Positions 30,391-64,000 of a DNA stretch of 64,000 nucleotides are shown here, piece by piece. This DNA is from Phoronis australis (taxonomy: Eukaryota; Animalia; Phoronida), in contig NMRA01000907.1 of assembly GCA_002633005.1 (NCBI GenBank), positions 20,255 to 84,254 of the forward strand. Direction: 5' to 3'. Under the pieces are notes generated by a model that worked only from the letters and a program-made list of their open reading frames with translations, was not told where the DNA came from and searched no databases. Numbering within the stretch: position 1 is the first letter of the stretch; each line of letters begins with the position of its first letter. The position numbers were made by a program, and so were the translations under genes.

Positions 30391-30545
30391 AATCCAGTGG
30401 CTTGCTATGCGACCGCTGGTGGATGCGCTGTCTCAACTAAGTTCGTGTCTCATATTTCATGTCATAGGTATTGTTAGACCGAAAATTTATAAAAACTTTA
30501 ATTGATGCTCTTTTTTCAAACAGGGTTCTTCAGTTTGCTCTCAAC

Positions 30546-40677: not shown

Positions 40678-41631
40678 TCAGGCTAACAAATTTTCACTGT
40701 TCAGTACAGTCGAATGAACTTTGTTCTTTTTGCAAAAGCAAAACACGTATCTACACGATTCTCTACAATGCCTGGATCGTAGACCGTACAAACAACCGTT
40801 TAGAAAAGCACTGGAATAGGCGCACCACATTACGACACGATGTGCAGATTGAGGCCATTCGCCGTTAGGATCCGCCACCGTCCGAGCAGTCATGGGGGCG
40901 AAGCAGACGACAAACAAGATTAACGCCATCGCTTGAGTACCAAATTCCTTTGACGCCTTGTGAAAACGATGGGGATCGCCGTCATCGCGCGACAACCGAG
41001 TTTTTACAATAATCAGTAGACTGCACGTAATTAATATAATACAAACAGATGTAAATCCCACAACCACTAAAATCAACGTTAAACTATCGATTTGTCTCCC
41101 GTTTTTACTTCCATAATTATCGCAAATCCCTGAAATTGGTAGCTTGTCTCGCCTGTAACCGCCAAAAGTTGTGAGCGCCACCAGTAACGAGCAGACAAAC
41201 GAGCACAGCAATAACACGGTCGTGTTTCTCCATGAAAACAGCTGGTCATAAAACACCTCATTCCATACTCTTACGCAGCGATTCACTGCCACTGCCGATG
41301 TCGTTAGAAAGGATAGCCCAACGCAGATGCGTAATATTATTTCACCTATAAAACACGGCGACGATTCGCCTAATAGTGCATAATTCGACAAAATGTTGCC
41401 CAGAAAGATTGGTAAAACTGTTGTTAACAGCAGAAGGTCCGACAGTGCTCGAACAAGTAGCAGAACTTTACCCGCCTTGCGACGTAACTCCTCGCGCAGA
41501 ATAATAACACCTACAACAACCACATTGGGAAGAAAGCCGACCGGAATGAGCATTGATAGAAAAACCTTTTCCGTAGCATTCAGAGCTGACGTCACGTTTT
41601 CGTAGCCATTGGAACTTCCACGGAGCACCAT
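40678..41631 (-). CDS. Class A GPCR, diverged paralog of the 30546 receptor (~317 aa)
   Basis: Seven TM segments; NVT/NAT sequons; ALSD, AVNRC, CFAP, FLNGCLYGLRS. Shares NYA.L..S..C and DP.G.WP..AH+.VMW with the other GPCR. ATG at 41631, preceded by a ttttccag acceptor at about 41657. Confidence 0.9.
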   Translation of the reverse strand: MVLRGSSNGYENVTSALNATEKVFLSMLIPVGFLPNVVVVGVIILREELRRKAGKVLLLVRALSDLLLLTTVLPIFLGNILSNYALLGESSPCFIGEIILRICVGLSFLTTSAVAVNRCVRVWNEVFYDQLFSWRNTTVLLLCSFVCSLLVALTTFGGYRRDKLPISGICDNYGSKNGRQIDSLTLILVVVGFTSVCIILITCSLLIIVKTRLSRDDGDPHRFHKASKEFGTQAMALILFVVCFAPMTARTVADPNGEWPQSAHRVVMWCAYSSAFLNGCLYGLRSRHCRESCRYVFCFCKKNKVHSTVLNSENLLA

Positions 41632-43572
41632 TGTTCTTTTTTGAGTCACGGTAATCCTGGAAAATTATGTAGTATGGCAATGAGGTACTCAAATGCGTGG
41701 AATGTTATTAACTCTACGTTATTGTTCTTAAGACTCTTAATAACATTTGGTTGCTGAACTCAGCAAAAAATTTCCTAAAAATGGTTCCAATCCCCTTGTG
41801 AATGGTAGACCAATGTGACTCGTTTTGAACAGAAGTAACTGTATTTTTGAGAGCAATGTGAAATAATTTTGACATTGTTTTTCGACCATTTGCTTTTCCA
41901 AGAAATTTTGTTAAAACACCCAACTAACCTGTTTTATTCACCTTTTCGCTCGTTACGTGTTCATTTCTCCCCGTTCTCTAGTTACAGCTGTGCTGACGAA
42001 TACTATTCGTGTACTTCAATGATGTCATCGCGCCCAGGTTTGATGTTGGTGGCGGATTCCAAGAAGTAGGAATTCAAACCGGACTTGCTCAACGTAACAG
42101 AAAGAAAACTCGTTGCAGACCGTTGTCCTCGGTTCAGCTGTGCTCTGCATCTACATGTGTTAATGATGCTTTCTCACGGCAGTTTTTGCCACGTATAGTA
42201 TTCATAGTGTAGTATCGGTATCTATATATATTGACATTCTTCCATCTGAAATCCATATTCATTGATCTGCGAAGTGCGATTAATTGATTATAGATCCGGA
42301 TTACCAGTGCCTAGTCGAGATGACAAATATTTGTACTTTAACTATAGGTATTGATGATCTCCGCTTAGACAACGTAGGCTTAACATGTTGGTTCACAGAA
42401 ATATTTGTTCGGTCACACTTCTAAACGCTTGCGTACGCGTCTGTTTGTGTTCAGACATTAGTTGACCAGTGTCCCTTGTGTGGCTCAATACCACATGTTT
42501 ACGAAAAAGCATTTATCGAGCTTATGAAAATAAGGCCTGGCCGTTCTATTTATTTGTACATCGGTTGAGTGCATCATGGCGATTTTGCAATGAATTCAAT
42601 CAATACAGTCGTTTCGTTTTAAAACAAATTCCTACACGCAAACATTGTTACTCCATTGAATGACACCCGCTATTACCTGTTCATTGGTCTACGTCTTCCA
42701 TTCCTTCTAGTTTCTCCAAAAATTAGTCATAAACTAATACCGATGACGGTCTGAGCTGCCGTTACTTTTATGAATAACTATAGCTACTGCTTTAAATTAC
42801 TGGGAGTAGACATCTCACCGAACACATGGTGTATCTTTCAACACGCCACAGATTTTTCAAAAGAAACTAAATTTAGCAAAATTCAAGTTTATATTTTATG
42901 GTTGCACAATAATAAAATGACCGCCAAGATGAATTACTTGGAAGTGGCTCAATTCTTTTATAAGCACAGGCAATTATACGAAGAGCTGAAATGTTCCTCA
43001 CTAGCTAAACAACAGCAGGATGCAAAAACACAATAGCATGTCATTCTGTCACACTAGCCAATTACAGAAGAGAATCTTTGCCAATAACGCAAGCTGCTTC
43101 ACATGAACTCCGTCCACCGTTAAATACCATATACAAATTCACAGGCACTTAAAATTAATATGTTCCTCGGTCACCACTGGCACGATCCACTGTAATAAAA
43201 CTTTGTTGCGGTGCGTCATTGAGAATATTCGTCGGCCTGTGTACAAATTGCACTACACGGAAACACTGCTCATTTTGATCACGCATGCATGCACGCATAC
43301 ACACATTAGGGCAAATAAGCACAGGCATATATACATGTGTTTAGTAATATGTAAATCTTATACAAAATGTTGTTATCACTTACACATTAACAGTTTGCTT
43401 ATATTGTATTCCGTGGAGTATATTGGATGTATAGCACTGACGTTATTTTCCTAAGGTGTCAGGTTTATGGTATTGATTCCATCAGTCTTCCAACGTTATG
43501 CATGGGAAATAAAAACTACATGTAGGCCTACAGTCTTTTATATTCTATTGCTCACTTGCATTGGATCGCATT

Positions 43573-43889: not shown

Positions 43890-46840
43890 AATCCTGTTTT
43901 CAAAATTTGGCTAATTGTATCATAGTAGAAGCTAGAAACAAACTATTTGAATACTCGAAACATATTTAGTCCGAGTCTTTTGTAACAGAATCGAAGTTAA
44001 GAATGTATATTTTATTTAAGCTGAGTTTTCAAGTGAACCGTGTGTGAAGCTTAATTTATCTCGTTCTGAGTGATCTGTTTTGGCTCCGTTCAGAAGAGGA
44101 AATCTTCCGAATGCACTTAGAAAAACTGGTCGTTAGTAAACACTCCTGTAAGTGAAAGACTGCTTGTGCTGGCTATTCCGATTCTGTGGAGGATGGGTTA
44201 CATTTTGTGTTCAGTGGTTGTTCTCTTTATAACTCACGGAGGTCTATTCAATTGTGTTTTCCTTCATGTCCCGAATTTTGCATTTTTCAGAAGATTAGAT
44301 ACGTTAAAACTGCTGTTTCAATACCTTGCCAAATATTTCAAGTCTGCTTTTGAACTTAGAAACCGTCGCATTTATGGTAGGCCTACATGTACAGTGAGTT
44401 GTGTGGCTATAGTGAATAATAAGCCCAACTGGGCTGGGTACTTGTTATTCTGACGAATGTTACACCTATAATTGTCTGAATTCATTGTGCTCACTATATT
44501 AAATTAATACATGCATACACACACACGCACACGCGTATACATACATCCGTACTTGCATGATTTCATACATACATACATTCGGCATTCAATCATTCATAGT
44601 CATAAAATTACATACACATACAGTACACCTTTCCAACTGTTTTATTATCTTTTTAAAATTGCACATGTAACGTAAGTTTATAAACGGGTCTCCGTCGGAT
44701 CTACGTTTTCAGTAAGTAGTGGGGGTTAGGGTTCGCGGGAATCCGAGTCGCCTAGTCATCATGTTCATTATCGCCACCTTTATCATCATGGTTATCCCCA
44801 TCCCCGTTCAGGTCTTTTCAGTTAATTTCGTCAAGTGCCGCTCATCCGAGTACTTGTGCAGGGAACAAATTGACACCAGTATTATAATGGTTCTATTATT
44901 GTTCTAAATCGCAAGATGACTTCTTATACAGTAGCCTTGAAAACAGAAGGGATATGTCCATATCCTGGGCTTGGTTTCACACATGATTCTCATGTGCCGA
45001 ATTCCTGATATAGGCACAGGTTCGAATATAGACGTGTGGGCCTAAATACGCGCATACATGGTCATAATATTTACACGTACGTACATGTACATGTTTGCAC
45101 CAAACTCAAGCTGTGTTGTGGCTGTGAATGAAACCCTAATACACATAAATGAATTCTGTACTTCAAGAGCGCACTGTTAACATGGTCTCTCAGTAGACAG
45201 TGGGAGGATGACCAACAGAATGAAACAGGTTTTATAATTACAGCTTGCAAAATAAGCAAATTATATTCATTTATTGCGAATGTGTTGTTTTAATAGTTCA
45301 GCCTTGCAATATTTAACGACACCCTACTCTATATTCATAAGATTGCGTGAACAGCAAGAAATGAAAAGTTACGCTAGATGGCGTGCACAACTCAGTATTA
45401 CAATTGTTCGGGAGGTTGCCTGGTCAAAATAGTCGATGATTTTCCATTATTGGACCGTGAAATACAACGGAACAGTTACATATATAATTACACGATATTT
45501 ACAATGAAAATAGATTGAAGAAAATGAAAGAAACACGTAGTGTCAAAGCACAGTGGGGCAAATCGGTAACTATATAATCACGTGAAGTGTAGACAATTAT
45601 TACATATGTACATACGTCGTACAATTCCAAGTGGTGGCACTGCTGTGTACAAATATTAGAACTAGAGCGGAACTCGGCCACCATAGTGAGACGTCAGCTG
45701 TCTTTTGATGGACATCCCGAAATTATGGACAGTATATTGTATATTGTTTACACAAATACTTACTGCAATATAAAATCAACTCACCACACTTAAATAAAAT
45801 CTGTTCAATAGCACACAATAATCCTACACTATGCTGAACTCGGCACTCGGATACTTTGTGAGGGTGAATTTAACTACATTGGCCAACATTGATTCGCCGT
45901 TGTCGAGCCAATACAGGAACACGAAACCACGCTGATCCGATGATATTCCAAACATAAATGTCTGATTTATGTTAACGTGCTTAACGAATTCGTTCGTCTC
46001 ACATCCGGAGTGTCATTCTAAAGTACAGGCACGAACTTAGGCCGATTAAACTCCCTAAAAACCGAATGGAAAGGATTCATTTTGCAACCGAACTAATAGA
46101 AGATTTTCATAATTTGCCGAATTTCGTCGTCTTAAAATTATACAGACCAAAAGTTTTTGCATGGATTAGTAGAGAACACCTGCAAAACGAATCTGTCCTG
46201 CGAAAGGGTTACTTATTCACTAAAGCTCATACATAATTCATCTCATTCTTTCTCGGCAACGCAACGTTCTCATTAGACTTCCTACATGTAGGAGCGATTA
46301 TAGCGGAGTTTCCCAGACACACATCCCCAAAGACATATAGCTAAAGACAGGCACCCTGTTGTTGAAAGCATAACCTTGTGATTTGATGCTCAACGTGTAG
46401 TCAACATTTAGGTAAAGTTTACAACAAAAAATCACTATGACTACGCTTGTACCAAGAATGGGATGCGGTCCGTAAGGAAATGTACAAAGTGGTAGTGACA
46501 TTCGAAGTGATCAACGTGGGGAGTTTGTGGACGTTGGTCCTGTTCCTTTGTTTTATGCGGCCTGGAGAACGTTTCATGTTTCTTAGAGGAAGAGCGAAAA
46601 CGAGTTGGTAACTCGTGCGACCAGTTTCCCAAAAGGTTACGTCATTAAATCGCAACAGTTCAGTGAAACAGGGTCCATAGGCCAATTTGTAATTCTTGCC
46701 AGTGCATTGCCTTATACGGACCGTATCCCATGTTGACATATCACTTTCTGTACTAGCATGACCATACTATTTTGTTATTTTTTTGTAAATTTTGGCCCCT
46801 TCAAGTTGATCATCAAACCATAAAGTCGTACCATCATAGA

Positions 46841-47158
46841 TCACAGTACACGATCTGGCCTTCCATGGAAAATGTCCGCACACAAGTCAGGATAATCGTT
46901 TAGAAAGAAGTCATAAATGAACTCCATTCTCACTCCCTGTTCAATCTCTTTAAGATGAAATTCCCCAGGCGCCACCCTTATGTCATGTCCGCACGTGTGC
47001 ATGACAGCCACGCACGCCTCCTGTTGGTGGTTAGCTACAAAGCCTGGGCTTCCTGAGCTGCCACTGCCGAATTTTGAACTGGATTGGTAAAGCGCTCGCC
47101 GTCTGTCTGTTATGTTTTTGAACATGTCTTGTTTATATTTCCTGTGTAGCCCAAGGAG
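46841..47158 (-). CDS. Last exon: protease C-terminal lobe with catalytic Ser
   Basis: Acceptor cttacag|ctc, phase 0; ALYQSSSKFGSGSSGSPGF...VAVMHTCG...IEQGVRM resembles FAM111 Y.T.F..GxSGSPVF...VAMHxxG...IEFG; ends in TGA. Confidence 0.9.
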   Translation of the reverse strand, partial: LLGLHRKYKQDMFKNITDRRRALYQSSSKFGSGSSGSPGFVANHQQEACVAVMHTCGHDIRVAPGEFHLKEIEQGVRMEFIYDFFLNDYPDLCADIFHGRPDRVL

Positions 47159-50100
47159 CTGTAAGTATAACAATGTGACTTCAGTGGTAAATGACAGGTA
47201 AAAACATGTAACGTGTCGGTCACTGATGTAAGCAAACTATGACTGTCGATCATTGAAATAGTACAATATTCTAGTTACAAAAAAGGTTTAATTTTAAGAG
47301 TGTATTTAAAAGGCATAAAATACATAACTTGTTTCCAAGAGTTTAACTCATATGTCTATGCTCCCTTTTCCCTGAACTCAAGAGAACAACTGGCATGTTT
47401 AAATTCAGTGACATGGGTATTTTAAAAGCATTCAGCTGACAAATGTCCAGTAATCCTACCGTTATAAACCTCACCCTACAATGATCTATATAACTAGCCG
47501 AATTGGTTTTATTTAAAAATGGACAAAAGTATATTGTAGGTCACATTCCATTCATTCCGAATGACATAGTAAATGTTATCGTACCTTTTCTATATTTTGT
47601 GGCGATGTACAATCATAGTCAATAGTACACATCGTATCCAAAACTTTCCCATCGCCAACTGGATGTCCAACAAAATGAATATATCGCTGTGCATCAATAG
47701 TTGCAAACTCAGTAATAGGCGGCGGAAGTGGGCATTCACTGATCTTCAGACATCGATTGAAGGCTCTTGGAAGTGATGCCTCGAAATTGAGGTCTAAGAC
47801 GGCCACATCGAGGTCCTCGCAATGAGCCAATATGGCGCGGATAGGCGCTGCAACGACACCGTCCACTTGACGAGGCTTGTTAAAATGAAACAGAGCCACG
47901 TTATGCTCGGCTGTAAAATACACATTAGAAATGACCAACAAACAGTTCAGAGCTTATAGGTTGTTACATACTACCTAAACAAGCAGACTACAACCAAAAG
48001 ATTCTGTTACCCGATGATACATGACAGAAGCTGTTAGGGTGTAGTGTAACACTGTTTCATTTGTAATGGAAGTTGAAAAGTACAAATTGAAACATTGCTT
48101 TCTTGTCTCTTAGCTTCTAGTGGCTGTCAATTGTAAGGTGTATCAACTCATAATGCATTATAGAACGCACTAAATGACTCCAATTAATGTGCTATATAGA
48201 TTATCCCACATACATAGAAATACTACTGTCATACCCTATCCAGAATTCATTTCATCTGGGAATGTCCCGGATGAGATGTGTTGTTGTTGTGTGCTTTGGC
48301 TTGTTGTTACATGACGTCATATCCATGTCAAGCCTACCTGCGCCTGTACAGCGATAGGTGATCTGTGAGGCTTAACAGCTAGTTCAGTTTTATTTCATAT
48401 TGAATTGATAAGAACTTTCAGTTTTTGAGATGTTCAAGTTAAAAAGATGAATAATTCAATTATAAATGTTAGTCGGGAACTTTGAAACAATCTCTCCGGA
48501 AGTATAAAAGTTGATCAGTTTTGCTAGCAGCAGTTTGTCGCTTTAGCTTCGATGAATTTCGTAGTTTTCTAGGTCTATTTTCCTGTATTAGGTTATGAAA
48601 CAGAACTAGTATTAGAAATGTTTCCCCTTGATGCCTTGATGGCAGAACTGGAAAGTAACGGTGGACACTGTGCCGTGTTTGAGATATCAGGAAAGTATGT
48701 CAAAAAGCAGATTTTACGCTACCAGGAGAGCCGAGGAACGCTGCGAGCGCACGCTTGTGTCGGTAAAAAGGTGCATGTTCGATGTTAGGTATCATTTCTT
48801 TGTGATTATCTTAGCTCTCAGTGTACAGTAGATATACTGCACATAAATGCTTCCATAAGAAAACGTTTTCGTTCGATTTGACTGTGCTGTAATATTGTTT
48901 TTCAACCCACTCATGGAATATAAAAGGCACCAAATGACTCCACTTGAACGGCAAAAACCTGTTGGTCCTTTAAACAAGGAAAGGAATCAACAATTAGTCG
49001 AACATGGCGGACTTCAAAGCTAGTCGACTGGACTGCTAAACCAAATTGCCGGTGATCAAACCTGTTGTTCGAACTTCAAAACGGAATGGTTTCACCCAAA
49101 AAATAGTTGACTGGACCAAAAACAGGATGGCCGGTCCCATAACCAGTTGTCCAGAGATCAAACAGGACGGCTGACTTCCTCAGAGACTCCCATTTAATTC
49201 GTTCTCAAGGATTCAAGTGATATCTACTGTCTGTGCACCCGCCAGCCCGTTTTAGGTGTGTTCAACCATTTTTTGTGTGCCGCCATCTGGTTTTAAGGTC
49301 CAACCACCAGGTTAGAACAAGGGGAATTTTATTTTTCAGTCCTGCCAACTTGTTTCAAAGTCCAGGCAAGTGGTTTTGAAGTCTGGGCAAAGGGTTTTGA
49401 AGTCTGGACAAGTGGGTTTGAAGACTGGGCAAGTGGTTTTGAAGACTGGGCAAGTGGTTTTGAAGTCTGGGCAAGTGGTTTTTAAGTCCGGGCAAGTGAT
49501 TTTGTCCGACCATTTGTTGATTCCCCTCCTTGTTGAAGCTGCTTTCGCGCCCTGTTATCGAGTTAGATAAAAACGAAAATAGAATTAGGCATTGTATTCC
49601 CGTGAAGTCAGTGTCGTCAGATTATTTGCCGTGATAAAATTCTTTCTACTACAACGGAAAATATGGAAACCATTAGTGACCCAAGAAAACGCTTCCAACG
49701 TTATTAGAGTTGGCCTTATAGACATCACACAGACTGGGTGGGCAGAACACATGGAGCTCACCTTGTCAACGTATGACGCCATATTGGAAAGTGTGACACA
49801 AAACAAAAATGTCGCAAAACACTGAGACACCTACAACATCAGTCAGGAAATATCCGGGGCTCGATGTGTTACATGTATGCCTGCAGCCAAAGAGTTGAGT
49901 GTATTGGTCCTACCATTGAATCATAGCTTTTTGGTTCTGCCATAGAGTTTAGTGGTGCTGCTTAGGTTCTGTCACCGTAGTTTAACCAGTGTAACCATGC
50001 GTTGTTTCCACCCAAGTCTAGTCTTGTTGACTGAGATCATATCAAATCAATTTAAAAAATAATTATTGGCCAGCATATGATGTTATCGAATGTTGATGCT

Positions 50101-53100
50101 GTTTGTTAATTGTACTTAAGTAAATATGTGGTATTAATGACAATGATATGTTTTTACTTGTACTGAAAAACAGAATCTGCATCATGATGCCCGCCACTCA
50201 TCCAAATCAGTACATCTACGTGAGTAACATATTTTTATTGAAATACGTACTGCCTTAAAAACTCTTTCTGAATATATATTCCCTAATCAGATATTTTTAT
50301 GTTGTATAAAGGTAAATCCACAGTCTGTACTTATGTCGCACTACTTTGCTTGCCAACAGTTGTTTTGTGACTTAAAAACTGCGTAAAAAGTGCAAAGTAA
50401 CAAAACTAGCATACCTGCACAACTGAGCTGTGCACACGACTTATATTCAATTACGAAGAATTTTAAACTCGAAACCGAGTGGAAATATTTCCATCGGAGC
50501 CGGTGTTCATTAAACAATGACCCAGTGAAAAAAATGACTATGGGTATTTTTTTCAAGGGGTATAAATTCAATGTGAAGAATTTGCCACTCGTGAATATTA
50601 CGATCAAAAGTTGGAATATGGTACCGGTAAGCATGGCGCTACTAACACATAGTGTACACACAAGGTAATGCAACACAGTCACTGAATGTCCTGGCGCTCA
50701 CTTAAGACTGGCCTTCTAGTTAGATAAGTTATAACGTTGTTTATAAAAGTACCTGAACCCCAATAGTTTTAAAACAACAGATCGCTATACAGCTCTACAT
50801 TTTTATTTGTGAAAAAAATGCCTTAATTCAAACAATTGCAAGTTCGTACTTACGTTCATGACTAAGTTCTTTTAATACATGACAGTTTGTCATGATGTAA
50901 GTTGGACCAACACGGAACCCAGATCCCACTCCTGTCCCGTCTGCTCTTGCCAATAACGCTACAGATTGGAGAGCGTCAGAAAGAGACTTGTGTAAGTCCG
51001 CCCACATCACGTTCTTACCAGGAGCATGGAATTGTGTTGTTGAACCGGTTAATTGTGTCGGAGACTGTAGGAGTGGAAAGTAATCTGGAAAATATAGAGC
51101 TGGTTCATGTAGGAACTCTTACGCTGAAACTGGAATAGGAACAGGAATTATTTTATCAAATTTGACTCCTTCCTTAAACTTTACAATTACCTGACTGCCT
51201 GGTAACCACCTCCAGTATGTCCAAGTCGCCGTCGTTTCTCTTGTTTACAGTAATTGTGACCTGTCCCTTACCGACGGCGATGGTTTGGCCTTTTGAGTAG
51301 ACATAACGTTCGAGCATTGCACAAAACTGCTTTTCAGACGGGGCAGCCCTCGCCCCCAGACATTGATCGGATGAACCCGCAGTCGCATGGGGTCTCATTT
51401 CACCACCACACTGGACACTTTGCTCCATTTTTTTGGATCGACGAGTCTGTTCCATGTGTTGCTGGAGGTGACATTGTTAAATGTAAGTAATTGGCTATTT
51501 CACATGGATTGTAATCAATACACCTCAAAAGCTTTAAACAACATGCATCCCCAAGCACTACCTCAGGAAGTAAGTTTTTCACATGAAACCTCGTCAACTG
51601 AACTTCAAGGCCGCATGCGCAGTCGTGCAACTAGGTTTGAGTGTAGCAGTGGCCTCAGGTAACTCTCACCGAGTCGAAAGTTAACGAACTGAATTAGTTC
51701 TCGATGGTTCCCTGCGTGTCCGCAAGGGGGAAGAGAACTGCAGGTATTATTTAACAGTCCTCGGTAAAATTGATACACCTGGGTATTTGCCTTACACCTA
51801 AGTTAGTCTGGACGCAAGCTACGGAAACTTTGTCTCAGAAAGCACAGAAAGCAATTTTTTCAATTAAACGTTTCCAGTCAAAATGTGGACGACTTTCACC
51901 GAAAATTGCACTCGAGATTTTTGATAAAATGGTATACCCAATCATTAGCTATGGAAGTGAGATTTGGGGATTTAAAGAATACACTAGTATCGAGCGCGTT
52001 CAATTGAAATTCTGTAAGCAACTGCTGGGTGTTGGAAGTAACTGTCCAAATCATGCTGTCCTGGGAGAACTGGGAAGGTATCCAATTTATGTAAAGCTGT
52101 TTGTTAAACTGATCAAGTATTGGTTTAAATTGTTAAAAATGCCAGCACATCGAAATCCAAAATCTGTCTATGACAAGCTTGTCACATTGGATGAGGCTAG
52201 TAGGAAGAATTGGGCTTCATCTGTTAGGAATTTGCTGCAAAGGTATGGTTTTGATTTGGTATGGTACAATCAGGGAGTTGGCTGCGAAGCATCGTTTCTT
52301 GTCATTTTTGAGCAACGAATTAAAGATTGTTTTTTACAAGACTGGAGCTTTGCTGTGGAGAATAGCTCAAAACTTAATACGTATTTCTAATTTAAAATTA
52401 ATTTTGAAATGGAATCCTATCTGTTGCGTGATATTCCATATATCTTTTTAGCAGCTATGGCTAAATTACGTTTCTCCAACCACAACTTGATGATAGAGAA
52501 AGGTAGACATACTCTCGTGGACCAAAAAATACCGTGTGTGTTGTTTCTGTGTGTCCCTAATTGAAGATGAATACCATTTTATATGTGTTTGTAAAATGTA
52601 CTGGTCTCTGAGAACTGCATTTATACCCGAGTGGTGCTGGCGAGAACCAAATCAACATAAATTTGTAAAACTTATAAAAATGTCGGAGCCCATTGCTCAG
52701 ATTAATCTAATGAAATTTGTATTTCACGCCACTGCTCTCAGGGAAAAACTGCTCAGCGTTATCCTGTAAATTTCATGTAACATGTGGGCCAAGGCCTTAA
52801 ATGTTGAAATACATGAATTTATTTATAAAAGTATTATGTAGTGATATTGAATATAACCGACACCCTACATTGTATTCACCGTGGCCCCGACTTTCGTCAG
52901 CGTTTTGTTTCGTTCCCTTTTCATTATAAATCCGTCATGAGGTGTGTGGTCTAGCTCCGTCTGGCGATTTTTCAAGTTACTAAACTAAACGCCTGAACCC
53001 TGTGCATAGGGTTTTAGATGTGGCATGGTTTACTAAAACGCTTATTTTTACGTGTATACATGAGATTTTATTTTGGCGGTTTGATCGTAGCAATATTAAT

Positions 53101-56100
53101 GAGGGCCAATATTGACAACATGGTCGAGATATCAACAAAAACAACCAGAGTTATTAACAATGGTGAAATCCTCTGTGTACATGTATAACAAGTATCATAA
53201 AATGTTTTATTACTGTACCTTAAGGAGTTTCTTTATTGATTCCTCTTTACAGACATCGTAAGCAGTTCTTCCATCCTGTAAAATAGGTAATTAAATTCAT
53301 ATTAAAATTGACATTAAGTTTAAGTCAAAACTCCACTACACAAAACACGTGACCTCCATGCATATGTATTATAGATACAGGTAAAGTTCATACATTTTGC
53401 CGTTTGTGCGAGATTTCATAGTTTGGAAGTTGAGACAACTCTTAGGCTTAAGTGAAAAATAAACTTAAAACTGTTTCTTGGAGAGTCCAGGTTGTGAACC
53501 ACTATATGTTCATGTCATCCATTTTGATGAGTTGTAAACAAAGCGTATGAATCTAATAAGGATGTTGAAAATTGATTATCAGCTACAGAGTGATGTCATC
53601 AACTGGACCCAACACACACTCCGCAGCTTTTTCTGTTGTGTTTAAAAATATTTTTCAAGAGGCTCAACTCTCCTTCGCGTGGAGGATAGTTGGGCACCTA
53701 GTCAAGGAGAGTTGAGCTCACGGTTTCCTACAGCTTTGTATAACATGCACGATTCTTAATGAGCAGTTATGAAGAAAAAATGCTCTGCTGCTTTTGTCTT
53801 TAGCTTTTCACCCTTGAGTGTAAATGAAACTTGCTGAGTAACATTAACTAATTATATTTTGCTATATACGTCACAAAAAGTGACTAAACTTTTATCTTTC
53901 CGATTTCGTTTATAGTTGTAAATCTTACAGATACATGTAGCATAGTTTGCCAACAAATTCTTCCAAAACTGGCCAAGAATTGTATGGTGACACATGGCAT
54001 ACCTCCCCGCCAACTGGTGGTTTAGTAGCTGAGACAGCTATATTACAAACCCAGCACAATTAATGGGAAAAAATAATGTGGCAATATTTTACAATAATGT
54101 TAGGTTGCAAGTCACAATTCTTGCCTTATTTTGAAAATTCCAAAACCTGACCACGTACACATTTTACGAACTATTCCGCTGCTATTTAAGCACTGTCAAA
54201 ACGAACATTTTTGTCGCCACCAGTGTGTTAGTGATGAGTCTAATTATCTAGTGACTGATAACAACATCAGGCTGTGGCGTCCAGGCCGATGTAACTGCCT
54301 GCAACTGCATTGCGTCTTTGATCTGATCTTCAGACTTTACGTTACATACACCGGTCGAGTCGCCCAGCCTCGCCCGGTGAAAATAATCTGTTCACTTGGG
54401 ATTCCTTTCACAAAGAAACTGCATCATCCGTTGTGCAATCGCATTAAAAGTAAGGCACCGGGTTACACAACTTTGAGAGAAATAATTGAAATGCCAAGTA
54501 ATTTGTCAAGGCTTTTTCTTGTCAAGTAAACATTCCAATCACTTAATTATCACCATTTATGAAAATGGTTGACTTTTTCACNGTGTGTGTGTGTATATGT
54601 ATCAATCCGTGGCAGAAATATACACAGTTCTGTAGTAGGGTTAAAAATAAACCACAGGGTTATAACACTGAAAATTGTTAAATAACCACTGCACAACAGA
54701 GAAACATAACTTAAAAACCATAAACAGACTTTCTAAATACAGGCTTGCACAGTCATGATTAAAAACCTGTGCATTTTATAATAATTGAAAAGAGAAAATC
54801 TAAACTTGTGCCTGGTGTAGGCGACTGTACGGCGTTGTTGGTCTGTTCTTAGTTTGTGTAGCCATAATACGATGAATGTTTTCAGTCAGCCAGTTGGGTC
54901 ATAGTATAAGAATCAATAAATCCATTACTGGACTTTCGGTACGTGGAGATGGCTACGTTGCGTCCTCCTCTCGAGGACTTCATCAGGCCACTGAGTTGTC
55001 ACGTGAATTGTCATGTGATCTGTCGTACAGTTTCCGCGGGATTCTCTCCAGTGCCCTATCCCATGTCCTAGGTAAGTGAAAACCGCCTGTCTATTGAGGC
55101 TAGGATTCTCAATATTCTTGTAGATAGCTTCTTTGACCCCTCTCCAAAACCAATTCTCTTCTCTATCCAGGATCTTCACATCTTGCATGGCGAAAGAGTG
55201 TTCTGTGGAATCCATGTGACTTAAGACTGCAGAACCATAGCAGTCCCCATAACTGGACCTCCGATGCTGGTTGAAACGACTTTTCAGGGCTTGTTTGGTT
55301 TCCCCAATATATGCTGCTCCACATCCCGGTTCCGAGCATGAAATGCCATACACCACATTTGATGTTTTCTCTTTGCTGGTTTTGTCTTTCACATTTAACA
55401 ATTCACTCCTTATGGTGTTAAGAGCAATGTCGTGTCCTCTCATATGTGATTTGATCTGGTCAGCGATCCCTGGCACAAAAGGCAATGTTATCCTGATGTT
55501 TCCCCTATTATCAGGCTGCGTGTTCTGAGGCCTGACTCTGTCATGGTTTGCCTTGTGGAATGACCAGTTCGGGTAGCCACATCTTTTCAACACTGTTCTG
55601 TTGTGTTCTATTTCAAAATCAATGTCCTGCTCAGTGTTGGAGATGGTTCTCGCTCGATAGGCCAACGTTCTAATCACGCCTAGTTTGTGAATCAACGGGT
55701 GATTGGAGTCAAACGGAAGATAGTAGTCCATGTGAGTGGGCTTCCTATAAACCTTGGTCTTGAAATGCTTGTCTGTAACAGTCACTAAACAATCCAGGAA
55801 CGGTAAAGTTTTTAGTCACATGAATTCCACAGAACACTCTTTCGCCATGCAAGATGTGAAGATCCTGGATAGAGAAGAGAATTGGTTTCGGAGAGGGGTC
55901 AAAGAAGCTATCTACGAGAGAATTGAGAATCCTAGCCTCAATAAACAGGGGGGCTAGGGTTTCACTTACCGAGGACATGGGATAGGGCGCTGAAGAGAAT
56001 CCCGCGGAAACTGTACGACAGATCACATGACAAGTCACGTGACAACTCAGTGGCCTGATGAAGTCCTCGAGAGGAGGACGCAACGTAGCCATCTCCGCGT

Positions 56101-59100
56101 ACTGTATGTCCAGTAATAGATTTATTGATACTTATACTTTGTGTAGCAATGTTACGATCAAGCCAGTGACTTTTATTTTACTGAGTGCTCTGGGAAGGTA
56201 CATGCAATAAGGAAACGACTGCTTGTATAGGTTCACGTAAGAGGTAGATCATTTTTGATGAGATATATATGTTAAATGAATAATTCTTCGAACTCGTTGT
56301 TCATTTAAAACACATTTATTGCAGTATGAATTAAAGACGGAGTACAACACTCTCTACGCAGTCACAGCGGCCTTTAATGATTTGAAGCTTCACAACCGCT
56401 GCGTGTCCAACCTCTGACGCCATGTGTAGCGGTGTGTCACCCCACTACAGCAAGTGAACAAACATGCCGGGGGGATTGTTGGTCAGCATTACATATACAA
56501 TAGCGAAATGCGTGGCTCAACAGGGCTTCACGTTTTATATTTTTCAAGTTCAAAACTTCACCATCAGTTGCATATTGATGACGTGGGTGGATCCACAGTG
56601 TGTGACTACAACCTAACATTTAAACTAGCACACAACTTGAGCGACATTCCTTAAATGTTCGTCTGATGTGTTGTAGCCGCGCATTGAAAAGATAATTTAA
56701 ATTATACCACAATATTAGCTTCGAATGGCAGATACAACCGTGAAGTAACCCATAAAGTTATCTCACTAGTGAGATAACATTTTGGCGGGAAACCGAGGCC
56801 GGGCCTCAACAGTTGCGAGCCGCGCAATAATCGCATGTTCAGCAAAGAGCATTACACCGACAATTATACTCTATGAAAAATAAGACGCATAATTTCCATA
56901 AAAACGATATTTTAATACAGTGAAATTTCTCTCTCGTGTTCTCTCACTTGTAAATCACCGACCTCCAATTTGAATGCAGGTGTCGTGTGGTCGGGATCCC
57001 TTGACTTGAGCATTATAGTCAGTTACTAGTGGTAACCTACTTTAGCAGACGATATATTCCCGGTCCAAGCTTAGCGTGATAAAATGTGTAGTAAGCTATA
57101 ACAGTTGCTAAACCGTAATTTACAGATTAACTTTCTTTCTATTTTGTTTTATTTTTCAATTAGTTTTGAGTAAAAACATTATTTTACAAAAATATCTCGT
57201 CTTTTCTTAAAAGGTCACGACCTGCGACCCTGGGCCTCTGACATAGAAAGTAGTTACAAAGCCGAGGCGAGTCGAGAAAGGTAGATTGATTCATTGCATT
57301 GTTTCTCGTTCAGTATGTGGTATAAATAGATTATTACATGTTCTCAGTCGTTATCCCCCTTATATAGAGCCCTCGTGGATTTTGTAGAATTATCACCCTC
57401 GGAGCTAACGCCCCTCGGGCGATAATTCTCCAAAATCAACTCGGGCTGTAGATAACGGGGGATAACGACTTCGCCATGTAATAATCTATATATATGACAA
57501 CTTGATGTTATACATAACAACAGAGCGACATTGATTTAGTGAGCACTGTGGAAATGCAAGTAAATAACAAACTCATTGTACAACTCCATGTCACCTGAAA
57601 ACCGTTTTTAATTACTTCAAAATCACGTGCTCGTCACGTCACGTGCACGTCACGAGGAGTGTAAGGAAATGTCAAGTTTACAATAAAATCATTTATCCTG
57701 ATGAATTTATTAAAACACCGAATGATTCAGACTTGTCACATCTTGTATGTTGATCATCGTTGTGTAAACAACTAGTTCAACTAAACACCCTGTGTGTCAT
57801 TAATTACCTCATCGCGGACACTCACGTTGGCCCCGTGTTGGAGGAGACTCTGCACGACGGCTGTACGACCCCACAATGATGCCCGGTGCAGCAGTGTCCG
57901 GCCATCCTATGTAATATATAATGGAGATGTGTGAATGGACGACCAACGTTTAGAGCTAATTAACATACACGGGAGAAAGTGAACTTGTAAGGTGACATCA
58001 ATGAAACATCACTGACCCCTCTAAGGTGCTAATACTTGTAATGATGTCAACAGAGAAATGTTAAGTTTAAGAACAAAACAACAGAACCTGGTTAGTGTTT
58101 CGTTTCTTCTTACTGGACGGTAACACGGGTAGTAATTGTGCGCTGTAACGTGTTGAACAACCTCCAGTGTAACGTATGGTTTGGTCTAACGAATTAGGAG
58201 TATTTTAATTAAGTTATGGGACATTTTACATGTACATGTAAGTCACGATGCATTATCTCTTCCAGTCTACACAGCTTTAGCGGTTCATGAACAGAAAGCA
58301 GACGACATTTAATTTGACATTGTTTAGGAACATTAAATTGTGAAAATATCAACAAAATTTGTGCCTGTCAGTTTTAAACATTGTTTATGCAAACAACTAG
58401 ATCAACCAAATAACCTGTGTGTCATTAATTACCTGACCACGGACATCCACTGTGGCGCTGTGTTCAACTAGACACTCCACTATCTGTGTATGACCATACT
58501 GTGCTGCCCAGTGCAGCGGTGTCTGGCCCGACTATGTAATATATAATGGAGATGTGTGAATGGACGATCAACGTTTAGAGCTAATTAACATACACGGGGG
58601 AAAGTGAACTTGTAAGGAGGCATGAATGAAACATTACTGACCCCTCTAAGGTGCTAATACTTGTAATGATGTCAACAAGGAAATGTTAAGTTTAAGAACA
58701 AAACAACAGAACCTGGTTAGTGTTTCGTTTCTCCTTGCTGGACGAAAACACCGGTAGTAATTATGCGCTGTAACATGTTAGACAACCCCAGTGCAATGTA
58801 TGTTTTTGTCTAACGAATTAGGAGTATTTTAATTAAGTTATGTGACATTTTACCTGTACATGAAAGCCACGCTGCATTATCTCTACAAGTCCACGCAGCT
58901 TTAGCGGTTCATGAACGGAAAGCAGACGACATTTATTTTGACATTGTTTAGAGGGAACAATAAATTGTGAAAAGATCAACAAAATTTGTCCCTCATCAGT
59001 TTTAAACATTGTTTGTGTAAACAAGTAGATCAACCCAATAACCTGTGTGTCATTAATTACCTTATCACAGACATTCACTGTGGCGCTGTGTTCAACTATA

Positions 59101-62100
59101 CACTTCACTATCTGTGTATGACCATACTCTGCTGCCCAGTGCAGCGGTGTCCGGCCCATCTATGTAATATATAATGGAGATGTGTGAATGGACGATCAAC
59201 GTTTAGAGCTAATTAACATACACGGGAGAAAGTGAACTTGTAAGGTGACATAAATGAAACATCAGTGACCCCTCTAAGATGCTAATACTTGTAATGATGT
59301 CAACAGGGAAATGTCAAGTGCAAGAACAAAACAACAGAACCTGGTTAGTGTTTCGTTTCTTCTTACTGGACAATAACACGGGTAGTAATTGTGCGCTGTA
59401 ACGGGTTGAACAACATCCAGTGTAATGTATGGTTTGGTCTAACGAATTAGGAGTATTTTAATTAAGTTATGTGACATTTTACCTGTACATGTAAGTCACG
59501 ATGCATTGTCTCTACCAGTCTACACAGGTTTAATTAGCGGTTCATGAACAGAAAGCAGACGACATTTAATTTGACATTGTTTAGGAACATTAAATTGTGA
59601 AAATATCAACAAAATTTGTCCCTGTCAGTTTTAAAAATTGTTTATGCAAACAACTAGATCAACCAAATAACCTGTGTGTCATTAATTACCTGATCACGGA
59701 CATCCACTGTGGCGCTGTGTTCAAATAGACACTCCACTATCTGTGTATGACCACACAGTGCTGCACGGTGCAGCGGTGTCCAGCCCTCCTATGTAATATA
59801 TAATGGAGATGTGTGAATGGACGATCAACGTTTAGAGCTAATTAACATACACGGGGGAAAGTGAACTTGTAAGGAGACATGAATGAAACATTACTGACCC
59901 CTCTAAGGTGCTAATACTTGTAATGATGTCAACAGGGAAATGTCAAGTTTAAGAACAAAACAACAGAACCTGGTTAGTGTATCGTTTCTTCTTACTGGAC
60001 GGTAAAACGGGTAGTAATTGTGCGCTCTAACTTGTTCAACAACCTCCAGTGTAATGTATGGTTTGTTCTAACGAATTAGGAGTATTATAATTAAGTTATG
60101 TGACATTTTACCTGCACATGTAAGTCACGATGCATTATCTCTACCAGTCTACACAGCTTTAGCTGTTCATGAACGGAAAGCAGACGACATTTAATTTGAC
60201 AATGTTTAGGAACATTAAATTGTGAAAATATCAACAAAATTTGTCCCTGTCAGTCTTAAAGATTGTTTATGCAAACAACTAGATCAACCAAACAACCTGT
60301 GTGTCATTAATTACCTGATCACGGACATCCACTGTGGCGCTGTGTTGAACTAGACACTTCACTATCTGTGTATAACCTAACTGTGCTGCGCAGTGCAGCG
60401 GTGTCCAGCCCTCCTATGTAATATATAATGGAGATGTGTGAATGGACGATCAACGTTTAGAGCTAATTAACATACACGGGGGAAAGTGAACTTGTAAGGA
60501 GACATGAATGAAACATTACTGACCCCTCTAAGGTGCTAATACTTGTAATGATGTCAACAGGGAAATGTTAAGTTTAAGAACAAAACAACAGAACCTGGTT
60601 AGTGTTTCGTTTCTCCTTGCTGGACGAAAACACCAGTAGTAATTATGCGCTGTAACATGTTAGACAACCCAGTGTAATGTATGTTTTAGTCTAACGAATT
60701 AGGAGTATTTTAATTAAGTTATGTGACATTTTACCTGTACAAGAAAGTCACGCTGCATTATCTCTACAAGTCCACGCAGCTTTAGCGGTTCATGAACGGA
60801 AAGCAGACGACATTTATTTTGACATTGTTTAGGGACATTAAATTGTGAAAATATCAACAAAATTTTGTCCCTGTCAGTTTTAAACATTGTTTATGCAAAC
60901 AACTAGATCAACCCAAAAACATGTGTGTCATTAATTACCTTATCACAGACATTCACTGTGGCGCTGTGTTCAACTAGACACTCCACTGTCTGTGTACGAC
61001 CCCACAGTGCTGCACAGTGCAGCGGTGTCAGGCCCTCCTATGTAATATATAATGGAGATGTGTGAATGGACGATCAACGTTTAGAGCTAATTAACATACA
61101 CGGGGAAAGTTAACTTGTAAGGTGACATTAATGAAACATCACTGACACATCTAAGACACTAAAATACCTGCAATGAGTTCAACTCAAGTTTTACAGGTGA
61201 TTCGAAAACGTTGAAACAACAACAGAACATTTTGCAGACGTGGACTGCCAGAAGTTTGCTGAACGCCTCCATAATTCACAGAGACCCCTCCAGGTTGTGT
61301 TTATACTGGCTTCCTATTTAATATAATGTTGTAATATTGAAAGGGCGATTGTCATTAAGAATAGAAAGGTATCAACGTTGAGTCGGCAAAGATATTGTTG
61401 ATAGGATTCAAATCTCAGTGCTTCTCAAGATGCATGTACCGCGTACAGAATGAAAAATACATGTCGAAGTCAGGAGAGATAAAATATGTATTTACACAAA
61501 ACATATTTAGTTAAATTTTAGATAGCATACAGTGTTTGTAAAGTGGTCTGAATTAGTTTCTATTACCACGTCTTGCATGTCTACATCGGCCCCACCCTGT
61601 AACAATAACCTCGCCACCTCTGTGCTGCCCCGCCATGCTGCTTGGTGTAGTAGGGCCTTGCGGTCCTGTAGAAACAATGAACAAGTTATAGCAAGACTCA
61701 CAATCACTAACTTTACCGTGCATCTTAATTACTAACAACCAAAACTTTGAACTTGCACATAAAATTATCAAAGCTACTCCCTGTTTAAGAGGTAATATAA
61801 CAGTCGTGGTTAGAATAGAATTCTCAGAGTGAAGACACGGATGTTCTTTTATAATATGAACACTTTTATCAAAATCCGAGCAACTGGTTGTAGCTAAGAC
61901 TAACTATCATAGTTATTGACAAAAACGTGACCTTGATATTCACACAGAATAATCAACTTTAAGAGAACGATTTCACCAGCTACACCAGCTACACGGGACG
62001 AAATGAAGCTGACCGAGAAATCATTTTTGTTAAAAATATGAGGTAATAGGCGACAGCATTGAAGCAAGATGCTTAGTACATGAGAGATGAGAGAACATCA

Positions 62101-62665
62101 ATACAAGGTTAATATATCAGAATGGGATATCAAAATATTTCAGGAAAAAAATCGCTTGGTCAATCTTTGGTTTAGGGTGCATTAATAGTTGGGATCATAG
62201 CCACTGGAAAAACACTACAAATTAAACACATGTTGAAACACATTTTACCAAAACCTTTTTTGATCAAGATCTCTGTTCAGTGGATCAATCAATCATGTAG
62301 TTTCCATTTCGACACAAATCCAAACAGTCAGTTGTTCTGCTGCACTGAGACTTGATAAACGACGAAGGAGTGGTCGGCCAGACGAAGCTTGCTATTAAAA
62401 AGAGGGCTTTGCCGGCCAGTTTTCACGTGTACACGCGATCAATTGATACATTTGCCTGTTCTTGGATTTATTTAAAGGGGCATTTCCTATTCGTAAGAAA
62501 CTAATTAAAGTCCTTGTCTAACGCGTTGTTAACCCTTATTACATGGTTAGAAGATGTTATAAGGATCCAAGAAGTACCTACCCCATAACTAATACACGAT
62601 CCGTACTCGAAAACAGTTTAAATGAACGCGCCACTCACGATTCGCACCCGAAGAAACACCGCCAT
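46841..62665 (-). CDS. Multi-exon gene: ankyrin-repeat array plus FAM111-like trypsin-fold serine protease (~640 aa)
   Basis: Exons (minus strand, all GT-AG, frames compatible, no stops): 62639-62665 (tentative), 61567-61665, 60939-61037, 60315-60413, 59690-59788, 59061-59159, 58433-58531, 57808-57906, 53219-53275, 51191-51461, 50854-51084, 47585-47910, 46841-47158. Triad motifs TNCHV / DLDVAV / GSSGSP. Confidence 0.88.
47585..47910 (-). CDS. Protease exon with catalytic Asp
   Basis: ttttacag|cc acceptor (phase 1), aag|gtacga donor (phase 0); HCEDLDVAVLDL and IHFVGHPVGDGKVLDTMC (FAM111-type IGHP.G..K.ID.C). Confidence 0.9.
49320..49527. mobile_element. Small intronic MITE with AGGGGAAT...ATTCCCCT ends containing a 21-bp tandem array (gggcaagtggttttgaagtct, ~6-7 copies)
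   Basis: Inverted ends and tandem array (49364-49505) are directly visible. Confidence 0.7.
50854..51084 (-). CDS. Protease exon with catalytic His
   Basis: ttttccag|at acceptor, c|gtaagt donor, 231 nt, phase 1-1; QSVALLARADGTGVGSGFRVGPTYIMTNCHVL. Confidence 0.9.
51191..51461 (-). CDS. Linker exon
   Basis: cctccag|caa acceptor (phase 0), g|gtaatt donor (phase 1), 271 nt, open; QHMEQTRR...YVYSKGQTIAVGKGQVTITVNK...RQS. Confidence 0.75.
51770..52830 (+). mobile_element. 5'-truncated non-LTR retrotransposon (RTE-X-like) in an intron, antisense to the host gene
   Basis: FDKMVYPIISYGSEIWG...IERVQLKFCKQLLGV...VLGELGRYP; premature stop at 52390; then IEKGR..C.FC...IEDEYHFICVC..Y..LR (C-terminal Zn motif). 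Clade is tentative. Confidence 0.8.
53219..53275 (-). CDS. Ankyrin C-terminal cap exon (DGRTAYDVCKEESIKKLLK)
   Basis: ttttacag|gat and aag|gtacag; 57 nt, phase 0-0; typical terminal half-ankyrin GxTAxD...I..LL. Confidence 0.85.
54949..54991 (-). ncRNA. Minimal type I hammerhead-ribozyme-like motif (variant core), copy 1
   Basis: GUGGC-CUGAUGA-A-GUCCUC-gagag-GAGGAC-GCAA-CGUA-GCCAU; GCAA in place of canonical GAAA. Confidence 0.6.
56050..56092 (+). ncRNA. Minimal type I hammerhead-ribozyme-like motif (variant core), copy 2
   Basis: Same sequence as copy 1, in the inverted Penelope terminus. Confidence 0.6.
56702..57491 (+). mobile_element. Dispersed composite repeat, copy 2 (tRNA-like part largely missing, hairpin retained)
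   Basis: Collinear with 6219-7088; hairpin at 57326-57489. Confidence 0.85.
57808..57906 (-). CDS. Ankyrin exon 7: DGRTLLHRASLWGRTAVVQSLLQHGANVSVRDE
   Basis: 99 nt, tag| and |gtaatt, phase 0. Confidence 0.9.
58433..58531 (-). CDS. Ankyrin exon 6: SGQTPLHWAAQYGHTQIVECLVEHSATVDVRGQ
   Basis: 99 nt, AG/GT, phase 0. Confidence 0.92.
59061..59159 (-). CDS. Ankyrin exon 5: MGRTPLHWAAEYGHTQIVKCIVEHSATVNVCDK
   Basis: 99 nt, AG/GT, phase 0; also visible in the ORF track. Confidence 0.92.
59690..59788 (-). CDS. Ankyrin exon 4: EGWTPLHRAALCGHTQIVECLFEHSATVDVRDQ
   Basis: 99 nt, AG/GT, phase 0. Confidence 0.92.
60315..60413 (-). CDS. Ankyrin exon 3: EGWTPLHCAAQLGYTQIVKCLVQHSATVDVRDQ
   Basis: 99 nt, AG/GT, phase 0. 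Confidence 0.92.
60939..61037 (-). CDS. Ankyrin exon 2: EGLTPLHCAALWGRTQTVECLVEHSATVNVCDK
   Basis: 99 nt, AG/GT, phase 0. Confidence 0.92.
61567..61665 (-). CDS. Ankyrin exon 1 (N-cap-like): DRKALLHQAAWRGSTEVARLLLQGGADVDMQDV
   Basis: tttctacag|gac and gtg|gtaata; 99 nt, phase 0; unique flanks. Confidence 0.9.
62639..62665 (-). CDS. Candidate first coding exon MAVFLRVRI
   Basis: aATGGcg start, 9 codons, then a consensus GTGAGT donor in phase 0, compatible with ankyrin exon 1; next to an N, so tentative. Confidence 0.4.
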
Positions 62666-62725
62666 TNTTACAAGGAAAAAATGGCGGCGTTCAGGACAAG
62701 TTCCTGAACTGATGAGCCGGAAATG
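62659..62725. promoter_or_regulatory. Back-to-back YY1-like (AAAATGGCGG) motifs plus an ETS-like CCGGAAAT; possible promoter
   Basis: ccgccattn...aaaatggcggc and gccggaaat in a locally CpG-richer patch; motif match only. Confidence 0.3.
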
Positions 62726-64000
62726 TGGGTACGGAAATAACCGATGACAACCGGTAATCATACGCTCAGAGAGAAGGGTCAAATACTGTTAAAAAATCGC
62801 TTTTGGCAAGAAAGGCGAAAAGAATATAAAGAAAGGGTGTCGAAAATAAGAATTTATGTAGTAAGTATTTTCGGATACTAGAACCACATGGGCAGTTTGC
62901 AACAAGGACTTTAAAGATACCATGACCAATCTTATCAAAACTGATTGCATTTTTAGTTGTTTTTTTTGGCACTCGTTTCGTCCTCTTTTCACGCGCAGGC
63001 CGTCTGCATGTTGTGTTTCGACATGGATATAATTTTCTATGTTGTTACTGAAAGTTTGAAACGATCGATTTTCATAATAATAAATTTAACAGAATCGTAC
63101 AAGCACTGAGAAATAAAAGAAAAACATAAAAACGCAAGGCAACAAAATAAAAATACAAGTGCAAGACACGGATAACATAAAAAGTCAAAGACTCATTTCC
63201 ATTATGCCGCTAATTTGTCTTATCCAACATTTTGTTTTAGATCATGGTGATAAAAAGTAAAGGTTAAAAGTGAGGTGTCAAAGAACTCCATATGTAACGG
63301 AACGACTACGACAGCTTTTATGACAAGCAACCAAGGAGTAAAAAATAAAACATCTTCAGCATTAGCTTCTTTTAGATTCTTCATCACAAGCAGCTTATAT
63401 TACGGTTACTTGGACAAAAATAGAAAAAGACTCACTGATACGTTGAAAATATGACGAGTAGTATTCAAATAATGAACAATATCATAACAGTAAAACAGGA
63501 TCAATCCCTAAAATAATAATAACATATCGTACACCAAAACATTTGTTTGGATGAAAACTATCTAAATAAAAACTTCAGTAGTCATTAAAATTTCTCCCTC
63601 GTACAAAAAGTCCCGAATACGTCTAATAATAGAAAAGCTCTGGAAATCAGACATTCATTTTTACATTAACACTGAAATAAAAACGACTCCTCATGATGAA
63701 GATCCAGCAAACGTCATTGTGGTCGTTTAGAGAAATATATATTATTCAGTTGGCAACGTATCATTGACGTTTAGAAGAGCTTAACTGACCAATCAGAACG
63801 CAGTATTCCTGACGCACCTTCGTCTGCGTTTCCAAGCCGCCATGGTACCCGACAAACAACACGTTGTCGGTAAAGCTTATTTTCGTCTATAGCTCAAGAA
63901 ATTGTGCGATAAGAATGGTGAAACGGTGTTGAGATGGCGTGTGTAATTCTCACACAGTCGTTATACACCTCGAGAAGGATATCCCGTCACTTTTTGTGCA

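Follow-up and report, generated by a model that had tools for sequence, protein, structure and literature searches.

A stretch of 64,000 nucleotides from Phoronis australis (contig NMRA01000907.1, positions 20,255 to 84,254 of the forward strand; the whole stretch is called the window here) was found to carry, on its minus strand, a transcribed gene that joins a row of ankyrin (ANK) repeats to a trypsin-like protease. The protease is probably a FAM111-like enzyme, and the protein is read here, on balance, as a candidate immune sensor and effector in one chain. The window is DNA of animal type, with spliced genes, intronless G protein-coupled receptors (GPCRs) and retroelement pieces.

Structure of the ANK-protease gene

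Exons of the minus strand joined by script gave a 12-exon model of 1896 nt and 631 aa with AG/GT ends, compatible phases and no internal stop, as the initial annotation had proposed. The GC content is 36-42% across the gene. The most 5' supported exon is ANK exon 1 (61567..61665), which is joined to ANK exon 2 in RNA reads. ANK exons 2 to 6 (60939..61037, 60315..60413, 59690..59788, 59061..59159 and 58433..58531) form units 1 to 5, and the more diverged ANK exon 7 (57808..57906) forms unit 6, of a tandem array at 57760..61183 in which exon and intron are repeated together in units of about 625 bp with a self-identity of about 90%. All seven exons are 99 nt long and of phase 0, and all pass Pfam Ank (PF00023; E 2.8e-7 to 4.3e-11), in agreement with the seven repeats annotated initially. 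In a whole-window scan for 99-nt ANK-like exons eight were found; the extra one (56346..56444, minus strand) is degenerate, with AG/GT ends and a Pfam Ank match at E 3e-5, and is either a pseudo-exon or a rare exon. This eighth exon, the tandem array of exon plus intron and the selection signal on the binding face given below are additions to the initial annotation.

The array is followed by a C-terminal ANK cap exon of 57 nt (53219..53275) and a linker exon of 271 nt (51191..51461), both present in the exon model and in RNA. The protease is divided over three exons. The first (50854..51084) holds the catalytic His (codon 50879-50881, model residue 409), the second (47585..47910) the catalytic Asp (codon 47807-47809, residue 452) and the GHP..D.C motif, and the third (46841..47158) the FAM111-type insert, the catalytic Ser (codon 47054-47056, residue 561), His580, Glu599 and the stop. 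The 3' untranslated region (UTR) occupies 46500..46840, and a 1147-nt RNA contig extends about 660 nt beyond 46500.

No hydrophobic segment was seen in the 631-aa model (best 19-residue hydropathy 1.1), and no NACHT, NB-ARC or other nucleotide-binding switch was found in it with Pfam. The linker exon matched no Pfam family (three pieces at E 10) and gave no usable Atlas match. Its end (51240-51290, minus strand) is a short beta-rich stretch with an I-A-V-G core that is absent from 12/12 animal homologues checked. For comparison, RHIM cores read GIQIGA/GVQVGD (PMC4262963). An RHIM in the linker was not supported, there being no RHIM profile match and only the loose I-A-V-G core. A second copy of the gene was not found elsewhere in the 64-kb window.

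Transcription and splicing

Four runs bearing the same species label were used: one contig set, presumed to be RNA, and three stranded raw runs (X2, X3 and X4), of each of which about 18-19% of the reads were taken. The protease exons were covered at a depth of 4.5-24 in the minus-strand RNA orientation and about 0 in the opposite one, with the exception of the 3' UTR in X4 (depth 0.08); depth within the large intron at 48430-50745 was at most 2.4. All five introns predicted between ANK exon 7 and the last exon were matched by joints among the best 15 of 45, three of them in the raw reads of at least one run. Joints 47158/47585, 47910/50854 and 51084/51191 were found in the contigs and in raw reads (6, 4 and 0; 0, 5 and 0; and 5, 7 and 1 reads in X2, X3 and X4, respectively), joint 51461/53219 in the contigs only, and joint 53275/57808 in the contigs and in five variant reads of X4. 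A 425-nt contig of depth 46.2 was placed on the linker exon; because its length equals 56+271+57+41, it would join the His exon, linker, cap and ANK exon 7 and leave out the eighth ANK exon. Over a stretch with one array unit, reads that go back by 99 (9, 4 and 2 in X2, X3 and X4) marked splicing from ANK exon to ANK exon, and the 529-nt first intron, between ANK exons 1 and 2, was crossed by 2, 7 and 0 reads. The gene is thus transcribed and spliced, with a single splice path from ANK to protease, and the initial proposal that both belong to one transcript is borne out.

The 5' end fared otherwise. The tentative first exon of the initial annotation (62639..62665, minus strand) was reached by no joint among the best 15 of 24 for this end and lies within a dispersed repeat that has reads of both strands. 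In a contig that is 99% identical to ANK exon 1, the 63 letters upstream of 61665 are different ones. The tentative exon is therefore unsupported, and with it neither the absence of a signal peptide that had been claimed nor the intracellular location presumed from it is confirmed. As ANK exon 1 has no in-frame Met, further exons must lie upstream. The repeats in this area (62455-62980 and 63715-63925) are read on both strands and have many loose ends. The first of them holds inverted ATGGCGG motifs, the tentative ATG among them, which resemble a promoter element.

More than one copy or allele is expressed. At least four ANK junctions that are not encoded in the window were found in the RNA when the junction letters were translated by hand, and two loose ends read as diverged protease, one with Pro in place of Ser558 of the window copy. 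In X4 the His exon was well covered, yet only one read lay on the three protease joints of the window copy. These additional ANK and protease variants are alleles or paralogues. Separately, the introns at 61090-61720 were covered by minus-strand reads with fixed differences (depth up to 90 in X4), so that a related locus transcribes those introns.

Catalytic features of the protease

The catalytic triad is present in order (H409, D452, S561) with a G-x-S-G-x-P nucleophile motif, and the motifs TNCHV, DLDVAV, GHP.G..K..D, GSSGSP, VMH..G and IE.G each occur once in the model, as had been annotated. The His exon gave a weak match to Pfam Trypsin_2, below the cut-off (E 0.0023), and the Asp and Ser exons, each alone, matched no Pfam family. 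Taken together, the three exons align collinearly along animal Trypsin_2-type proteins and scored 26-63 bits against profiles, shuffled sequences reaching a maximum of 2-6 bits; Atlas features also led to Trypsin/Trypsin_2 clusters (0.91, 112 shared features). A helix-like stretch lies 34-42 residues before the catalytic His, at the place of the alpha1 helix of FAM111A. Fold prediction of one exon alone gave a predicted local distance difference test (pLDDT) score of 42.7, too low to use.

Searches with shorter pieces or other collections added little. Single-exon homologue searches yielded nothing from 47 and 188 candidates, the exons being too short, and searches of PDB with single exons gave no protease and no FAM111A match. 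All nine matches of a representative search, eight BspA-LRR proteins and one Ig-like protein, were rejected as spurious. PADLOC gave no match, NCBIfam nothing beyond low MarP/HtrA scores for the His exon, tblastn against plasmids only E values of 3-8, and scans for related loci nothing.

Family placement of the protease

When metagenome contigs were scanned for the motifs, 27 loci were obtained, eight of which had low-GC, animal-type open reading frames (ORFs). The eight animal-type and nine bacterial loci were used, the rest being duplicates, fragments or off-frame. The profile of the eight animal-type loci matched FAM111A at E 4e-45, with the next match at 2e-4. The profile of seven bacterial loci also placed FAM111A first, level with V8 protease, so that FAM111 and the bacterial conflict trypsins form one broad class. 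The alignment of the window exons with the animal proteins was used to search for proteins of more than 487 aa; 7987 candidates were scored and 17 matched, of which 12 were of animal and 5 of bacterial type. Five were fusions of tetratricopeptide repeats (TPR) to the protease, three of them named Paramuricea clavata, and two were lancelet ANK-Death-protease fusions. The five best pairwise matches of the window protease were all animal, and the best three were lancelet proteins (60.8, 52.8 and 52.0 bits, 27% identity). FAM111A was the only PDB match of one lancelet protein (E 2e-10); with the lancelet ANK protein as query, ankyrins crowded out other PDB matches.

In a tree of 33 rows, from which L011, which repeats protein P0010, and P0026, which lacks the motif, were left out, the window protease stood on the animal side of a 97/97 split as sister to the lancelets (89/74). 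The insert between HP and Ser measures 60 residues in the window and 66 in FAM111A by eye; among the bacterial rows this distance was 31-43 in 12/13 and was not found in the remaining one. An acid-Cys motif and an E[FQR]G tail, both present in the window, each occurred in 0/13 bacterial rows. The family-type insert and motif set, chosen after the alignments had been seen, is complete in the window protease and was found in 18/19 and 13/19 of the animals and 0/13 and 0/13 of the bacteria. His580 and Glu599 of the model match His556 and Glu573 of FAM111A, and the Y.Q..F..I and IE.G..ME.I patterns of FAM111A are present by eye. The profile of all animals scored the window protease at 63.2 bits and the bacterial one at 55.3, the animal set having been retrieved partly with the window exons. 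Lancelet proteins scored 96-109 bits with the animal and 63-70 with the bacterial profile.

Four results argue for caution over this placement. The window protease sits on a long branch (3.64); a tree constrained to group it with the bacteria was not rejected (approximately unbiased (AU) test, p 0.478); a narrow animal profile gave it 26.5 bits, against 45.7 for the bacterial profile; and adding the window exons to the animal profile raised V8-type proteases by about 8 bits and FAM111A by about 7. The FAM111-like nature assigned initially is thus upheld by the lancelet and FAM111A matches, the insert and the motifs, whereas strict membership of a FAM111 clade is not, and the protease is probably FAM111-like as a very diverged member of the family. 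The two ubiquitin-like domains (UBLs) and the PIP box were not found in the 631 aa, an ANK array and a short linker standing instead; as invertebrate FAM111-like proteins also lack both (PMC9798293), this excludes the FAM111A/B type and not the wider family. The initial annotation had described vertebrate FAM111A as carrying a PIP box and UBLs, which holds for the UBLs throughout vertebrates, while the PIP box is found in placental mammals only (PMC9798293).

Variation in the ANK array

Selection was assessed on five near-identical array units of one haplotype, so that unit pairs share members. Among these units the introns differ by 6.4% (0.064), silent exon sites by pS 0.021 and non-silent sites by pN 0.148. 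Exon divergence exceeded the units' own intron divergence in 10/10 pairs, with p<0.05 in 5/10; in the two closest disjoint pairs the values were 12/99 vs 21/525 and 10/99 vs 20/526 for exon and intron. Minimum changes against the majority codon numbered 27 non-silent and 0 silent (binomial p 5.6e-4). One silent codon pair was found between two exons, and the silent total is therefore at most 1.

The positions randomised in DARPins were taken by us to be 2, 3, 5, 13, 14 and 33. In these six face codons 10/18 columns are variable, compared with 69/524 in introns (p 4e-5). In a published ANK library the binding surface is randomised at positions 2, 3, 5, 10, 13 and 33 (PMC4308713), and these hold 11/23 of the minimum amino-acid changes (exact p 0.0018). 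The repeats thus vary chiefly at the predicted binding face, with an excess of amino-acid change, which gives figures to the variability that the initial annotation had ascribed to the ankyrins.

Other features of the window

Several mobile or repeated elements lie within the gene. The intron before the cap exon contains, at 54900-56140, part of a Penelope-like retroelement; it has a GIY-YIG domain (E 0.0015), and its duplicated end, of 335 bp, runs in the opposite orientation. At 51755-52770 (plus strand) there are two broken ORFs, read on both strands and without a Pfam match, which resemble the tail of a long interspersed nuclear element (LINE) reverse transcriptase. A dispersed repeat with a 175-bp palindrome occurs twice in the window (56702-57499 and 6219-7092), has heavy reads on both strands and resembles a miniature inverted-repeat transposable element (MITE). 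A minisatellite of seven copies of 21 bp lies at 49358-49504. Elsewhere, two intronless ORFs of rhodopsin-family GPCRs were found at 30468-31583 (plus) and 40678-41664 (minus; 7tm_1 E 3.5e-35 and 1.5e-19, respectively), and two pairs of segments, duplicated in dispersed or tandem fashion, measure 0.8-1.9 kb and agree by 79-94%: 1005-2881 with 28390-30381, and 18662-19477 with 19921-20765.

Proposed mechanism and alternatives

The reading we favour, with somewhat better than even confidence, is that ligand-driven clustering through the variable ANK repeats would activate the fused FAM111-type protease. Unequal crossing-over among the phase-0 units would add, drop and reshuffle repeats, and selection, the agent of which would be a variable invader ligand, would rewrite the binding face; the regime would resemble that of the repeats of fungal NOD-like receptors (NLRs) and the one-exon-one-repeat receptors of brown algae. 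A foreign intracellular protein would be bound by the ANK row, and the clustering that follows would switch on the attached protease. Activation may proceed through protease dimerisation, which is suggested because FAM111A needs an alpha1-helix dimer, required to order its oxyanion hole (PMC10920703), and a helix-like stretch lies at the same place here. The active enzyme might then cut the bound target or a host substrate of death or signalling.

Some observations count against this reading. The isolated protease domain of FAM111A is a dimer by itself and is active in vitro (PMC10920703), so that gating by a ligand is not a given. The Death domain of the lancelet relatives was not found by Pfam in the 631-aa model, and the protein starts upstream of the supported exons. 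The selection signal comes from five near-identical repeats of one haplotype in non-independent pairs, the pattern having been seen before the positions were named, and the framework columns vary at the intron rate (11/81 vs 69/524, p 0.86), so that purifying selection on the scaffold is not supported.

It would be rather unlikely, though the strongest of the alternatives, that the protease is a dimer and active at all times, the variable ANK repeats only delivering foreign substrates, such as viral proteins, to it without any switch. Such a restriction factor would accord with the self-dimerising FAM111A domain and its narrow active-site trench suited to linkers (PMC10920703), with the direct binding of a viral protein by FAM111A (PMC10469034) and with the lack of Death and NTPase domains from the 631-aa model, and it fits the selection signal equally. 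In the lancelet relatives, however, a Death domain, and once Roc-COR, adjoins the protease, an arrangement that speaks for regulated signalling, and FAM111 activity without restraint is also said to be toxic. The diversifying selection does not name its cause, and recognition of another kind (of self and non-self, of gametes or of transposon products), or a larger or secreted protein with further 5' exons, could be envisaged given the 63 unplaced letters upstream in the contig and a 5' end beyond the model. We consider this improbable, since the model has no hydrophobic segment, the ANK repeats stand at the very N-terminus in the lancelet relatives, and immune or conflict domains are what this class of protease is fused to. 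Most improbable of all is a young, unstable duplicate under little constraint, whose repeat variation would be noise from drift and conversion. The intron-like rate of the framework sites, the degenerate skipped exon and transposon fragments inside the gene, the modest read depth and the sparse coverage of this copy's joints in X4 would suit it, but the frame is open over 12 exons with the triad intact, silent change is almost nil, and the face codons exceed the introns in variable columns.

FAM111A is a human disease gene and an antiviral factor, and the locus bears on its origin and regulation. The same protease class follows variable arrays, of ANK or of TPR, in each of three animal lineages, which suggests that an older task of FAM111 was to be the cutting arm of pathogen sensors, and these fusions suggest a link to the bacterial defence trypsins. 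As a tentative extension, which we hold possible rather than probable, FAM111 may have originated as the effector of widespread, hitherto undescribed, NTPase-free invertebrate immune receptors. Interchangeable repeat arrays (ANK in this animal and in lancelets, TPR in corals) would be connected directly to a protease that is activated by dimerisation and descends from the trypsins of bacterial defence; in this animal the array would amount to a natural library like that of DARPins, diversified as single-repeat exons are duplicated and selected, its copies differing between individuals. The locus is a compact case of repertoire-building without antibodies, by modular 99-nt exons that appear to vary where protein engineers randomise ankyrin libraries. 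ANK arrays can be exchanged for a designed binder, so that a ligand-driven switch and mere delivery of substrates can be directly distinguished by experiment.

Comparison with known systems

Human FAM111A (PDB 8S9K, 8S9L; PMC10920703, PMC9798293) has the same Trypsin_2-type fold motifs in the same order. The likeness comprises His, Asp and Ser, the S1 His and Glu, GHP..D.C, the long insert before Ser, the IE.G..ME.I tail and the helix-like stretch at the alpha1 place. FAM111A carries a PIP box and UBLs where the window protein has its ANK array, the triad spacings are 43/109 here and 54/102 in FAM111A, and the positions of Phe537 and Phe538 are Gly and Ser here, so that specificity may differ. 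A chymotrypsin-like P1 preference is a trait of the FAM111 family. The window protease is split over three exons and, across the domain, shares about 23-27% identity with the animal proteins that match it best. FAM111A is an antiviral factor, and its protease domain mediates the restriction of poxvirus mutants (PMC10469034).

A like architecture was found in uncharacterised lancelet ANK-Death-Trypsin_2 proteins (XP_078583313.1/XP_078583312.1, XP_078700999.1 and XP_035660703.1), retrieved with a profile containing the window exons, which have an N-terminal ANK array as here and share the GSSGSPGF and IE[QR]GV motifs; XP_078700999.1 adds FN3, Roc and COR. These proteins, of 1004-1804 aa, carry Death and further domains between the ANK array and the protease, where the window protein has only a linker of about 115 aa. 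Two isoforms of one lancelet gene (P0021 and P0028) have 4 and 10 ANK repeats, which hints at variable repeat use. In Paramuricea clavata (CAB4007915.1, CAB3982350.1 and CAB4028510.1) a repeat array also lies N-terminal to a FAM111-like protease, the repeats being TPR instead of ANK and the protease falling in a separate clade. In the coral-type proteins P0013-P0017 and P0029, FAM111-like proteases are joined to TPR arrays whose period is 40 residues. The parallel fusions of ANK and TPR in lancelets and corals, together with the selection signal, give the locus more interest than the initial annotation could show.

Coral and lancelet homologues without UBLs have been named before; the portion of PMC9798293 covered here does not give their N-terminal domains and calls these invertebrate relatives unannotated. 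No description of a repeat-fused FAM111 was found in the literature covered in part here (PMC12373286, PMC8229355 and PMC8683736 included; immunome supplement tables and most subscription journals lay outside this scope). The initial annotation knew of no characterised ANK-FAM111 system; the lancelet records, though uncharacterised, already join ANK and protease.

The trypsins of bacterial conflict systems (PMC8195603) belong to the same broad class, with GSSGSP and H..G, and are likewise fused to sensing or adaptor domains; they are without the FAM111 insert, acid-Cys motif and E[FQR]G tail. The bacterial relatives adjoin EAD1, TIR or endonuclease domains (TPR-S/endonuclease-linked ones included), and the portion of PMC8195603 covered here treats bacterial trypsin effectors without mention of FAM111. 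In fungal NLRs (PMC4986451) repeats of the ANK, TPR and WD types are near-identical in tandem with variation on the binding face, as here, and Ectocarpus's ROCO and NB-ARC-TPR receptors (PMC3341825) are exon-shuffled with one exon per repeat, again as here. Both groups contain a switch of the NACHT, NB-ARC or Roc kind. No such domain was seen in the window protein, and unlike both the effector here is a FAM111-type protease C-terminal to the repeats. With the immune role and mode of activation that we infer, the gene would represent a known logic, a variable repeat sensor with an effector, in a new form rather than a new category.

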